Shown piece by piece: positions 58,321 to 64,000 of a DNA stretch of 64,000 nt (position 1 is its first letter; each line of letters starts with the position of its first letter). The stretch lies in the NCBI RefSeq assembly GCF_054482595.1, contig NZ_CM137008.1; one strand, 5' to 3'. The notes under the pieces were generated by a model. That model saw nothing but the letters and a program-made list of their open reading frames with translations, was not told the origin of the DNA and ran no database searches. A program made the position numbers and the translations under genes.

Positions 58321-58587
58321 TGCTACTTTACGCCTTTGCTTTAAACAAACAATCAACCGCCATCAGTATTTGCACATTTTCAGAGTTTTATATAAAAGCA
58401 ATTCACTGATTTATATAGCTTATTTGACATGCATCGCAGAATTTTCTCTGCTATTTCGCATAAAGACTATCGGCAATGTCTCACAAAGCGTATGGCTTTT
58501 ACTTACAACGCTCACGCCGAAAAATCCGCCTTTTATTATGGTTCAGGTATAATCGCCACAAAGCTTTGACTGACGGAGACGACCGCT

Positions 58588-59220
58588 TTGACTAATTTGA
58601 ATTATCAACAGACGCATTTTGTGATGAGTGCGCCTGATATTCGCCACCTACCTTCCGATACCGGAATTGAAGTGGCTTTTGCAGGCCGTTCCAACGCAGG
58701 TAAATCCAGCGCGCTGAACACGCTGACTAACCAGAAAAGCCTGGCTCGTACCTCAAAAACCCCAGGGCGCACCCAGCTTATCAACCTGTTTGAAGTGGCT
58801 GACGGCAAGCGTCTGGTTGACTTGCCTGGGTACGGTTATGCGGAAGTCCCGGAAGAGATGAAGCGCAAATGGCAGCGTGCGCTCGGCGAATACCTCGAAA
58901 AACGTCAGAGCCTGCAAGGTCTGGTGGTGCTAATGGATATTCGCCATCCGCTGAAAGATTTGGATCAGCAGATGATTGAGTGGGCGGTAGACAGCAATAT
59001 CGCCGTTCTGGTGCTGCTGACCAAAGCGGACAAACTGGCAAGCGGCGCACGTAAAGCGCAATTGAATATGGTGCGTGAAGCTGTACTGGCGTTTAACGGT
59101 GATGTGCAGGTTGAAACGTTTTCTTCGTTGAAGAAACAAGGCGTGGACAAGCTGCGGCAGAAACTGGATACCTGGTTTAGCGAGATGCAGCCTGTAGAAG
59201 AAACGCAGGACGGCGAATAA
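58588..59220 (+). CDS. engB: Ribosome-biogenesis GTPase EngB/YsxC (TTG start)
   Basis: 210 aa (M)[21 protein letters not shown]...; G1 motif GRSNAGKSS; ORF initiates at TTG with GGAG RBS; TATAAT-like -10 (GGTATAATCG) about 40 bp upstream. Confidence 0.9.
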
Positions 59221-59239
59221 TTTTCTTGCCTTAATGCTT

Positions 59240-59321
59240 GTGCCGGATGTGGCGTATCCGGCCCGTAAATTCAATAGATTACAATTCTACCGTTGGCCTG
59301 ATAAACATAGCGCATCAGGCA
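59240..59321. repeat. REP/BIME pair
   Basis: GTGCCGGATGTGGCGTATCCGGCCC and TTGGCCTGATAAACATAGCGCATCAGGCA. Confidence 0.75.
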
Positions 59322-59345
59322 TTACGGATCTTTTCTTTCGCCCAA

Positions 59346-59454
59346 TAAAAAACGCCCCAGTCATTACTGACTGGGGCGGCTAAAATATTCAGCCAAATCC
59401 GATTACGTGAAGTAAAAGGTCTGAAAGATAGAACATCTTACCTCTGTACCCTAC
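59346..59454 (-). ncRNA. spf: Spot 42 small RNA
   Basis: Minus strand reads GUAGGGUACAGAGGUAAGAUGUUCUAUCUUUCAGACCUUUUACUUCACGUAAUCGGAUUUGGCUGAAUAUUUUAGCCGCCCCAGUCAGUAAUGACUGGGGCGUUUUUUA with terminal hairpin plus U-tract. Confidence 0.9.
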
Positions 59455-59601
59455 GCGACTAACTTTACTCTTTTTTGTTCAGTTCAGAAAGCACTTTTTG
59501 TAATTTTTTTTCAGTTGTTGCATAGGAATTTCTAATAGCCATCACAAAACGTGACAGCTTATGTTGCTTACTTACGAAAAAAGGGCATGTTCAGGCGAAT
59601 C

Positions 59602-62388
59602 TTAGTGCGCCTGATCCCAGTTTTCGCCACTCCCCACTTCCACCAGCAACGGCACATCCAGACGGGTACAGTTTTCCATCAGTTGATGAATCTGCTTCGC
59701 GACGGCATCAACATCATCTTTATGAACTTCAAATACCAGTTCATCGTGTACCTGCATGATCATACGTACACGCGGTTGCTCAGCCTGTAACCACGCATCA
59801 ACGGCAATCATCGCCCGTTTGATAATGTCGGCGGCGGTTCCCTGCATTGGCGCGTTAATGGCTGCACGTTCAGCCGCTGCACGACGAGCACCATTGCTGG
59901 ATTTGATATCCGGCAGATACAGACGGCGTCCGTCCAGCGTTTCAACGTAGCCCTGCTCTTTCGCCTGAGCACGGGTGCGTTCCATATACTCCAGCACGCC
60001 AGGGTAGCGTTCGAAGTAAAGGTCCATGTACTTCTGCGCTTCTTTACGTGGAATGTTCAATTGCCGCGCCAGACCGAAAGCACTCATGCCATAAATCAGA
60101 CCAAAGTTGATCGCTTTCGCGCTACGGCGTTGCTCGCTGGTGACGGTTTCCAGTGGCAAACCAAACACTTCTGCCGCCGTTGCCCGGTGGATATCTTTTC
60201 CTTCCGCGAATGCGGTCAGCAAGCCTTTGTCACGCGAAAGATGCGCCATAATGCGCAGTTCAATCTGCGAGTAGTCCGCTGAGACAATCACATAATCCTC
60301 TGGCGCAATAAACGCCTGGCGGATACGACGACCTTCTTCGTTACGCACCGGAATGTTTTGCAGGTTAGGATCGGTTGACGATAAACGTCCCGTTGCAGTT
60401 ACTGCCTGGTGATAAGAGGTATGCACACGCCCGGTTTTCGGGTTGATCATCAGCGGCAGCTTGTCGGTGTAGGTCGATTTCAGCTTCGCCAGACCACGAT
60501 ACTCCAGAATCACTTTTGGCAACGGATAGTCCAGCGCCAGTTCTTCCAGTACCTCTTCCGACGTTGACGGCGCGCCACCCGGCGTTTTCTTCAGCGGTTT
60601 AATACCCTGTTTTTCAAAGAGAATGGTTTGTAACTGCTTGGTGGAAGAAAGGTTAAATTCTTCACCTGCAATTTCATGCGCTTTCTTTTCCAGCTCAGCC
60701 AGACGCAAGGTGAGCTCTTCAGAATGATTGTGCAGCACTTTCGGATCGATCTTCACACCGTTACGTTCAATGCGTGAAAGCACCGGCACCAGCGGCATTT
60801 CGATATTCTCGAAGACGTTCAACGGCCCTTTGTGTTTTTGCAGATCTGGCCACATTTTCAGATGCAACTGCAAGGTGACATCAGCATCTTCGGCGGCGTA
60901 ACGTCCGGCCTCTTCGAGGGCAATCTGGTTAAAGGTCAGTTGATTTTTGCCTTTACCCGCAATCTCTTCAAAAGTGATGGTTTTGTGCTTCAACCAACGT
61001 TCCGCGAGGCTGTCCATATCGTGACGCCCGGCAACGCTATTGAGAATGTAGGACTCCAGCATGGTATCAAACGCAATCCCACGCAGCTCAATGCCGTAAT
61101 TCGCCAGAATACCGCGATCGTATTTCAGGTTTTGCCCGACCTTCAGCGCCTTTTCATCTTCCAGCAGCGGTTTTAGCAACTCGAGTGCACGCTCGCGAGA
61201 GATTTGATCGGGCGCATCAAGATAATCATGAGCAACCGGAATATATGCCGCTACACCTGGCTCGATAGCAAAAGAAAGCCCGACCAGGTTAGCAGAGATG
61301 TTATCAAGGCTGTCGGTTTCGGTATCAAATGCAAATACCGGCGCTTTTTCCAGCTTCGCAATCCACGCTTTCAGTGTTTCTTCATCAAGGATGGTGACGT
61401 AGTTGTCATAAGAAATCACCGTTGCCGTCACTTCTGGCGCTTCGTCTGCAACACTGGTTTCCTGTGGCTTCGCGGCTGGTTTTGCCCCTTTGGCCTGTAA
61501 CCATTTGCCCGCTTCGACATCAGCAGTCCAGCGTTTGAACTCATACTTTTTGAACAGCCCCAACAACTCTTCCGCTGCCGGTTGCTGCACTTCCAGTTGT
61601 TCACAGGTCAGCTCCAGTTCAACGTCGGTTTTAATCGTCGCCAGCTGGTATGAGAGATAAGCAACTTCTTTGTTTTGCTCGAGCTTCGCTGCCATTGTTT
61701 TCGCGCCACGGAAGCTCAACCCAGCAATTTTTTCTGGCTCGGCATACAGCGTATCCAGTCCGCCAAGACCTTGCAGCAATGCCTGCGCGGTTTTTTCACC
61801 GACGCCCGGTACGCCAGGAATGTTATCAGAGGAGTCACCCATCAGCGCCAGGAAATCGATGATCAGTTCTGGCGGCACGCCGTACTTATTCACCACCTCT
61901 TCCGGTCCGAGGATGGTATTCGTCATGGTATTGATAAGCGTAATATTTGGCGTCACCAGCTGCGCCATATCTTTATCGCCAGTGCTGATCAGCACCGGAC
62001 GCCCGGCTTTTTCGGCTTCGCGCGCCAGAGTACCGATAACGTCGTCCGCTTCTACGCCAGAAACCGCCAGCAGCGGCAGTCCCATCGCTTTAACCATCGC
62101 GTGCAAGGGTTCGATTTGTGCACGCAGATCGTCCGGCATTGGCGGGCGATGTGATTTGTAATGTTCAAACAGTTCATCACGAAAGGTTTTTCCCTTGGCG
62201 TCAAAGACCACCGCTGCATGCGTCGGTTTATATTGCATGATCAGACTGCGCAGCATGTTGAGGACACCATACATCGCACCGGTCGGCTCGCCTGCGCTGT
62301 TAGTCAGCGGGGGAAACGCGTGATATGCGCGATAAAGATAAGATGAACCATCTACAAGGATAAGTGGATTTTGGGGGATCTGAACCAT
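59602..62388 (-). CDS. polA: DNA polymerase I
   Basis: 928 aa, [28 protein letters not shown]...; 5'-3' exonuclease, 3'-5' exonuclease and polymerase domains. Confidence 0.97.
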
Positions 62389-62511
62389 AATGTCCGTGCC
62401 TGTTTATCAGATTATGGGTAAAGGATGCCACAGACAGGATGAAAACATGAGTTTTTCACCGCTTTTCGTGAAAATCTTTTGTAGATCTTCTGGATCGCTC
62501 GCAAATCGTCA

Positions 62512-62520
62512 TGTGGATAA
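62512..62520. promoter_or_regulatory. DnaA box (TGTGGATAA) in polA upstream region
   Basis: Exact consensus 9-mer about 125 bp upstream of polA ATG; a second near-consensus TGTGGATAG at 62653..62661. Confidence 0.6.
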
Positions 62521-62751
62521 CTTTGTGCATAAATTATTTACATCGCTTTTAATTTATTATCATGCTTTTTACAGCATGATGTTTGTCTTTGTTTTTCATG
62601 CAGTTAAAAATAAATCCATCCCTAATAATTGAGATAATGGGATTTTTTCTAATGTGGATAGATATGAATTATTTTTCTCCTTAAGGATCATCCGTTATTT
62701 GGGTCGTTTTCTGCTAAAATCTGCGCCTTGCGCTTCTTTAGCGCACTGTCT

Positions 62752-63684
62752 ATGGCTAACCTTTTGAATCAATTCATTATGACGAGAATACTCGCTGCGA
62801 TAACCCTTTTGCTGAGTATCGTATTGACCATTTTGGTCACTATTTTTTGTTCCGTCCCGATCATCATTGCCGGGATTGTAAAACTATTGCTACCTGTGCC
62901 AGTCATTTGGCGAAAGGTTTCGCGTTTTTGTGATTTTATGATGTATTGCTGGTGTGAAGGTCTGGCGGTATTACTGCATCTGAACCCACACCTGCAATGG
63001 GAAGTTCACGGGCTGGAAGGGTTAAGTAAGAAGAACTGGTATCTGCTTATTTGTAACCACCGTAGTTGGGCAGATATTGTCGTACTGTGCGTGCTGTTTC
63101 GTAAGCACATTCCGATGAATAAATATTTCCTCAAGCAACAGCTGGCCTGGGTGCCATTTCTTGGCCTGGCGTGCTGGTCGCTGGATATGCCGTTTATGAA
63201 GCGTTATTCCCGCGCTTATTTATTACGTCATCCGGAGCGACGTGGTAAAGATGTTGAAACCACTCGGCGTTCTTGTGAAAAGTTTCGCCTGCATCCCACC
63301 ACCATTGTCAATTTCGTTGAAGGCTCCCGTTTCACGCAAGAAAAACATCAGCAAACCCACTCCACTTTTCAAAACTTGTTGCCACCAAAGGCGGCAGGCA
63401 TTGCGATGGCGCTAAATGTACTGGGTAAACAATTCGATAAACTGCTTAATGTTACGCTGTGTTATCCGGACAATAACCGTCAGCCGTTCTTCGATATGTT
63501 AAGCGGTAAACTGACGCGGATTGTCGTACATGTGGATTTACAGCCTATTGCCGATGAGTTACATGGCGACTACATCAATGACAAAAGCTTTAAGCGCCAT
63601 TTTCAGCAATGGCTGAACTCATTGTGGCAGGAAAAAGACCGGCTTCTGACGTCTCTCATGTCATCACAGCGTCAGAATAAGTAA
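62752..63684 (+). CDS. yihG: PlsC-family acyltransferase
   Basis: 310 aa from [21 protein letters not shown]...; acyltransferase HX4D-like motif (CNHRSWAD). Confidence 0.88.
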
Positions 63685-63724
63685 GTTTTACTCGCCTCTG
63701 AATGAGCAGAGGCGAGTGAGTATT

Positions 63725-64000
63725 TTAATGAACAAAACGTCCGGCACGAGACATAAATTCTTCTTCGCTCATCTCCTGTCCGTTAAAAACAACTTTACCC
63801 GGTGTATAACGCAGCTGCAGCGAGGCGGTATTGTTGTCAATCGTGATTAACTGAAACATCTGACCTAATGTCATCATCCCGCTGATTTGTTTATCAGCCT
63901 GCTTTTGCGCTTTTTCCGCATCCATTCCTTCAGATAAATTAAGCTGTTTTGCGGTTTCTGTGACGACATTAAGCGGTAACTTCACATCAAAATTGAGCGA
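63725..64000 (-). CDS. yihF: C-terminal fragment of a larger minus-strand gene running off the window; probably yihF by gene order
   Basis: Reading frame open to window edge; the track Met at 63985 is most likely internal; identity inferred from K-12 gene order, not from recognised sequence. Confidence 0.45.
   Translation of the reverse strand, partial: SLNFDVKLPLNVVTETAKQLNLSEGMDAEKAQKQADKQISGMMTLGQMFQLITIDNNTASLQLRYTPGKVVFNGQEMSEEEFMSRAGRFVH

Follow-up and report, generated by a model that had tools for sequence, protein, structure and literature searches.

DnaA boxes between polA and yihG belong to a conserved module upstream of polA with putative IHF-aided activation of its promoter

Several DnaA boxes lie between the divergent genes polA and yihG, and the locus raises the question of which gene they serve and by what arrangement of sites DnaA would act there. 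The window, that is, the whole 64,000-nucleotide stretch of DNA that was analysed, holds this intergenic region at 62389..62751 (363 bp), base-for-base identical to MG1655 4046603..4046965, and 751 bases around the DnaA boxes have a match in 5425 out of 5426 complete E. coli genomes. A first-pass annotation had described here an exact DnaA box, a near-consensus box and two GATC sites, and had proposed a DnaA input into polA expression. The features on which the argument turns are the following:

59602..62388, minus strand: polA (DNA polymerase I), the regulated gene, from the annotation; its start codon end is at 62388.
62422..62432, minus strand: candidate weak extended -10 TGTGGCATCCT (TGn + CATCCT), with a predicted start near 62415.
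62478..62504, minus strand: alternative candidate promoter read from the sequence, TTGCGA (62499..62504), a 15-bp spacer with both GATCs, and TACAAA (62478..62483).
62484..62487 and 62493..62496, unstranded: pair of GATC (Dam) sites from the sequence, 9 bp apart, the first within AGATCT.
62512..62520, minus strand: perfect DnaA box TTATCCACA, the half of a double box nearer the promoter and the sole exact match in the 64-kb window.
62524..62532, minus strand: partner DnaA box TTATGCACA (plus strand TGTGCATAA), separated from the perfect box by 3 bp on its upstream side.
62594..62606, plus strand: IHF-like site, TTTCATGCAGTTA against the consensus WATCAANNNNTTR, with 2 mismatches in E. coli.
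62653..62661, minus strand: distal DnaA box CTATCCACA, a single box at an upstream offset of 141 bp from the perfect one and agreeing with the consensus at 8 of 9 positions.
From 62752, plus strand: yihG (acyltransferase), from the annotation, divergent from polA.

The locus is very probably the regulatory region of polA, with the DnaA double box embedded in a conserved module that would activate the promoter with the aid of IHF. The boxes of the first-pass annotation are where it placed them, with TGTGGATAA on the plus strand at 62512..62520 and TGTGGATAG on the plus strand at 62653..62661, and its two GATC sites are confirmed at 62484..62487 and 62493..62496. Its picture of the site was incomplete, as it missed the partner box TTATGCACA, half of the functional double box. 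The functional unit reads TTATGCACA-aag-TTATCCACA and occupies 62512..62532, which is 124-144 bp ahead of the polA start codon; the sequence at 62512..62520 matches TTATCCACA exactly, and that at 62524..62532 fits the stringent form TTWTNCACA. A double DnaA box, as defined by Stringer et al. 2024, consists of two boxes in the same orientation, 2 or 3 bp apart, and the pair at polA has both boxes on the minus strand, a 3-bp spacer and 1 mismatch in total. It is the sole double box with up to 3 total mismatches in the window, Markov-simulated windows averaging 0.04, and the analytic expectation for a double box with up to 1 mismatch is 2e-4 per window. Among single boxes, versions of TTATCCACA with 1 mismatch number 27 in the window versus 12.6 +/- 3.7 expected (0 of 100 shuffles reached 27), and TTWTNCACA occurs at chance level over the whole window (6 versus 5.5 expected).

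As a separate observation, the chromosomal region near oriC has been reported to be enriched for DnaA boxes, and the excess of near-consensus boxes in the window, about 121 kb from oriC, fits that report.

Occupancy of the site is already published. Stringer, Fitzgerald and Wade 2024 reported a DnaA ChIP-seq peak at polA, at 4046831 and 123-fold over control, and listed the polA "double DnaA box" in their Table 1 as tTTATGCACAaagTTATCCACAt (PMC11317965), which is the reverse complement of window 62511..62533. With the polA start at 4046966 in NC_000913.3, the peak centre maps to window 62523, in the 3-bp spacer; the peak is thus centred on the double box, not between the double and the distal boxes. 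The footnote of that table cites NC_000913.2, yet the coordinate of the polA peak fits NC_000913.3 (PMC11317965). The polA peak is among the strongest chromosomal DnaA sites (123-fold versus 14-fold at nrdA and 5-fold at the dnaA promoter), and at the double box of purH, DnaA binding needs both half-sites and the 2-3 bp spacing (PMC11317965). In the same study, polA RNA was unchanged with tagged DnaA, in an experiment that served as a control of tag function only, and the mechanism by which DnaA activates transcription was called poorly understood (PMC11317965). According to published work, then, a DnaA dimer occupies the polA double box in growing cells. As to expression, three citing papers credit Quinones, Wandt, Kleinstauber & Messer 1997 with the finding that DnaA stimulates polA transcription, chiefly in stationary phase.

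Both checks proposed alongside the original claim, DnaA ChIP-seq and a test of polA expression, therefore exist in print with a positive outcome, the former as the 123-fold peak inside the double box and the latter as the stimulation of polA transcription ascribed to Quinones et al. 1997 by the papers that cite it. Together they support the proposed DnaA input into polA expression. The site is that of E. coli K-12, the same locus with the same sequence and a core site without difference. DnaA binding at polA and DnaA stimulation of polA are already known, since occupancy and stimulation have both been published with positive results, and the core finding adds nothing new; what is added is the comparative picture of the module.

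This picture was drawn from the polA loci of 80 species, from Escherichia to Pseudomonas, with the first 120 residues of Pol I as the query; the sampled species are phylogenetically related, a caveat on the favoured reading. Every Enterobacterales family in the sample has a double box of the form xxxxxCACA, 3 bp, TTATCCACA, in the polA sense and 69-176 bp ahead of the ATG; it also occurs in Vibrionaceae and, among Alteromonadales in the broad sense, in Pseudoalteromonas, Shewanella, Rheinheimera, Alteromonadaceae and Psychromonas. The perfect box is invariant in 32/32 Enterobacterales (one of which has TTATCAACA) and at 21 loci of Vibrionaceae and Alteromonadales, and the xxxxxCACA core with its 3-bp spacer is kept across the three orders. 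In the 80-species sample, the double box is absent upstream of polA in Pasteurellaceae, Pseudomonas, Halomonas and more distant groups. On this comparison, the double box is one component of a module that accompanies polA across Enterobacterales, Vibrionaceae and Alteromonadales.

The second constant of the module is the distance to the distal box. With up to 1 mismatch, this box lies at an offset of 141 or 142 bp from the perfect box in 28/32 Enterobacterales, and no other box offset and no opposite-strand box (up to 1 mismatch) recurs among the 32 Enterobacterales loci. Outside this order, the box stands 142 bp away in Photobacterium and Aliivibrio and 143-146 bp away in Alteromonadaceae and Rheinheimera; Pseudoalteromonas has it at 129-134 bp. 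The sequence between the boxes is randomised, with a mean pairwise identity of 0.27-0.32 versus 0.30 from composition across 13 genera, while its length is nearly constant (SD 1.95 bp). Because length is fixed while sequence is randomised, selection acts on the distance and not on the sequence, and the cross-species comparison revealed no conserved array of low-affinity boxes in this spacer. Taken alone, the distal box is not significant, since boxes with 1 mismatch are common (27 in 64 kb); it is the conservation across species that makes the distal box, and likewise the GATC pair, non-random. The sequences CTATCCACA and ATATCCACA serve as DnaA boxes at DARS2 and datA. A comparable pattern is seen within the genus in the divergent Escherichia strain Z1323HEC0067 (E. 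coli, 84.6% identity), in which the distal box, the flanked double box and the promoter-proximal block are unchanged and the spacer has diverged.

Other features in and around the intergenic region can be set apart from the module. An 80-aa ORF at 62390..62632 (plus strand) runs across the polA promoter region, on the strand opposite polA, and a few RefSeq annotations of E. coli place a 'hypothetical protein' under this stretch; as a gene it was rejected, isolated motif blocks in randomised sequence being a pattern expected of non-coding conservation. A terminator-like palindrome at 62558..62581 (plus strand), TATCATGCTTTTTACAGCATGATG with a 9-bp stem and a T-rich run after it, is located in the spacer between the boxes. 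In E. albertii two uncompensated changes break its stem, and it is absent from other genera, so that it was discarded as a terminator and is probably non-functional. Another terminator-like site occurs at 62825..62839, within yihG. An Rfam search of 58500..64000 returned only the Spot 42 sRNA (spf), immediately 3' of polA at 59346..59464 on the minus strand (RF00021, 122.8 bits), and the intergenic region had no match to an RNA family.

Roughly midway between the distal and the double boxes lies the IHF-like site, which on the polA strand reads as the block YAANNNNTTGATW, the reverse complement of WATCAANNNNTTR, with a T-rich stretch after it. The E. coli copy alone is not significant, such matches being common in A/T-rich DNA. 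Its position is what recurs: a motif with up to 1 mismatch stands 86-87 bp upstream of the perfect box at 14/34 loci of Enterobacterales and Vibrionaceae, versus a background of 0.003 per position, and the perfect consensus is found at that offset in 8 genera. In Alteromonadales the motif is located at about 75 bp and in the opposite orientation. The copy of strain Z1323HEC0067, TAATTAATTGAAA, has 1 mismatch and is nearer the consensus than that of K-12. The text and supplements of Kasho 2021, consulted for IHF occupancy, mention neither polA nor yihG. At about 130 bp, the fixed spacer is not long enough to loop freely, as would be expected if an IHF bend were to join the DnaA sites.

On the promoter side of the double box, the GATC pair shows a less regular history. 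In 21/32 Enterobacterales, the 45 bp that follow the perfect box contain at least 2 GATCs, typically 9-11 bp apart, and the first 30 bp downstream of the perfect box hold 47 GATCs in this order, versus 4.3 expected (about 11-fold). By its sequence, the pair displays the Dam/SeqA-type feature of at least 2 GATCs about one helical turn apart. The GATC region singled out in the first-pass annotation was thus conserved as regards the pair, but not as regards the hexamer AGATCT. The hexamer was considered as an ATP-DnaA box and rejected, since other genera retain GATC and not the hexamer, a pattern that argues for Dam/SeqA input rather than for a hexamer bound by ATP-DnaA. Alteromonadales do not have the pair, and it has disappeared from Z1323HEC0067 and Citrobacter werkmanii, although each of these two retains the TGGCATCCT block and its three DnaA boxes; because of these absences and losses the pair is regarded as an accessory feature.

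A related arrangement was observed in Photobacterium and Aliivibrio, where it is the distal box, instead of the perfect one, that three GATCs follow at a distance of 5-30 bp (TTGTCCACA...GATC...GATC...GATC). In Vibrionaceae a cluster of Dam sites is hence kept in the module, its position shifted with respect to Enterobacterales.

Closest to the gene is a promoter-like element. A consensus promoter and terminator scan of 62300..62850 returned no sigma-70 promoter, and a polA start site was looked for in the supplements of Kim 2012 and in the Cappable-seq supplements, where nothing was found. The comparison across species does point to a candidate: virtually every locus bearing the DnaA module has TGGCATnCT 35-54 bp before the ATG, and in E. 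coli it corresponds to TGG+CATCCT at 62422..62430, conserved across orders and with a hexamer that matches the -10 at 3/6 positions. It may be a weak extended -10 (TGn + CATnCT) of the polA promoter. In Pasteurellaceae, which are without the boxes, most sampled loci have cgcTATAATgc where others have TGGCATnCT, about 30-45 bp upstream of the ATG. The substitution suggests that polA turned constitutive in this family on loss of the DnaA module. The alternative candidate at 62478..62504 was missed by the consensus promoter scan; it adjoins the double box, and its TTGCG is kept in many Enterobacterales. Two other readings of the region were rejected by eye, namely TGGCAT as a sigma-54 element, as no -12 GC element is seen in E. 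coli, and a LexA box (CTG-N10-CAG).

The distance from the perfect box to TGGCAT varies in a periodic manner. The values fall into classes of 31, 38-43, 49-52, 60-63, 70-74 and 79-83 bp, with one outlier at 128 bp, and follow a period of 10.4-10.8 bp with R of 0.74 over all loci, at 10.4-10.5 bp, and 0.57 over 20 distinct distances; for the latter, the Rayleigh approximation gives p of roughly 0.002, in a test that was post hoc. Since the distances change by whole turns, the double box would be held on one helical face of TGGCATnCT, the signature of a stereospecific contact. The outlier belongs to Providencia vermicola, the sole locus out of helical phase, whose inter-box spacing is normal at 142 bp. 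If TGGCAT marks the promoter, the E. coli double box would lie near -107, a remote position for an activator that acts directly.

These elements can be assembled into a mechanism. DnaA bound at the double box would activate the weak extended -10 promoter of polA in a manner dependent on the helical face, and a bend induced by IHF would bring the DnaA at the distal box onto the double-box dimer, thereby stabilising the complex. After passage of the fork, the hemimethylated GATC pair, as a target of SeqA, may transiently modulate the control of polA by DnaA. The net effect would be to tie the supply of Pol I to the level of DnaA and to the status of replication. A more ambitious version, possible but rather doubtful, holds that this is an ancient, strictly spaced DnaA-IHF-DnaA module in which a single box, an IHF bend, the double box and a helically phased weak promoter succeed one another and a third DnaA loops back to the dimer at the double box; it would have persisted throughout the history of the Enterobacterales/Vibrionales/Alteromonadales lineage, with a loss in Pasteurellaceae, and might, in the way of datA, sense or alter the nucleotide state of DnaA close to the origin.

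The likeness to datA also underlies the alternative that survives best, although it is improbable: that the module manages DnaA itself, through titration as a datA-like reservoir or through hydrolysis of DnaA-ATP on a scaffold bent by IHF, with any effect on polA being secondary. The parts of datA have counterparts at polA, all in one orientation: a double box whose halves are 3 bp apart and include a perfect TTATCCACA; a single near-consensus box that has the same direction and is 141-162 bp off; and, between them, a sequence like the IHF consensus (YAANNNNTTGATW on the box strand), which at polA has 2 mismatches in E. coli. The very high occupancy (123-fold, versus 14-fold at nrdA and 5-fold at the dnaA promoter) is in keeping with such a role, as is the location about 121 kb from oriC in a region enriched for DnaA boxes, with 27 near-consensus boxes versus 12.6 expected. 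The order of the parts, however, is reversed and the spacing is 141 versus 162 bp. In MG1655, datA runs from box 7 over 3 bp to box 2 (perfect), with the IHF site 65 bp on and box 3 another 97 bp on, so that its double box is 5' of the IHF site and the perfect box adjoins IHF; in the polA module the double box is 3' of the IHF-like site and the perfect box is the one farthest from it, with distances to IHF of 55 and 74 bp in place of 65 and 97 bp. On this comparison of sequences, the polA module resembles datA and is not a copy of it. Moreover, datA is not a promoter element. The polA module is phased to a promoter-like element across the taxa and always found directly upstream of polA in spite of rearranged neighbours, which points to a cis-regulatory role, and the literature yielded no report of DDAH or DARS activity for the polA locus.

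Comparison with other DnaA-bound loci helps to delimit the architecture. The core of a DARS consists of three boxes, of which boxes I and II are in opposite orientation. A core of this type was rejected at polA, where the three boxes lie on one strand without a recurrent opposite-strand box; as all of them share one orientation, the DARS reading is excluded. With the left half of oriC (R1, IHF site, R5M and low-affinity array), the polA module would share a high-affinity box joined to other DnaA sites over an IHF bend, but it has no conserved low-affinity array and no unwinding element, and it is not an origin. The double boxes of purH and nrdA are likewise of high quality, with 3-bp spacers, upstream of genes of replication or nucleotide metabolism, and bound in vivo (124-fold and 14-fold, respectively). 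The purH upstream region has the double box only, with no distal box and no IHF consensus at up to 1 mismatch. Among the loci compared, the three-part architecture appears to be specific to polA.

The same fixed geometry decides between polA and its neighbour. The assignment of the boxes to the polA/yihG region in the first-pass annotation was right as to position, but the distal box goes with polA and not with yihG, as its 141-142 bp spacing is kept without yihG. That this box (62653..62661) regulates the divergent yihG, unrelated to polA, is very unlikely, despite its location 91-99 bp upstream of the yihG ATG in E. coli and a divergent arrangement that recurs in Escherichia, Citrobacter, Enterobacter, Klebsiella-like genomes, Serratia, Edwardsiella and Budvicia. 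The gene upstream varies: it is yihG-like in some genera, and elsewhere dsbA (co-directional), yihF, an ElbB-like gene or a cytochrome c gene. The spacing of 141-146 bp is kept without an upstream yihG-like gene in Erwinia, Yersinia, Pectobacterium, Providencia, Photorhabdus, Aliivibrio, Photobacterium, Rheinheimera and Alteromonadaceae, and the distal box, whose upstream flank is not conserved, keeps a constant distance from the double box. Because the three boxes persist whatever gene is upstream, the module belongs to polA. Finally, the notion that the motifs are chance matches without function in A/T-rich intergenic DNA can be dismissed: boxes with 1 mismatch are indeed frequent (27 in 64 kb) and TTWTNCACA is at chance level (6 versus 5.5), but it is refuted by the expectation of 2e-4 double boxes per window, by the retention of three boxes across orders amid randomised surroundings and by the published occupancy.

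No mention was found in the accessible literature of the distal box, of the constant spacing and the IHF-like site within it, of the GATC pair, of the phasing to TGGCATnCT or of the retention across orders; a search of incomplete coverage, directed at the polA promoter and DnaA and at comparative genomics of the DnaA regulon, returned nothing relevant. For the favoured reading, that of a polA regulatory region in which DnaA would activate the promoter with the aid of IHF, the fixed 141-142 bp spacer, the positioned IHF-like site and the phased promoter element lead to concrete mutational predictions. If the more ambitious version is true, the ancient DnaA-IHF-DnaA module would be a defined natural system in which to learn how DnaA activates transcription.
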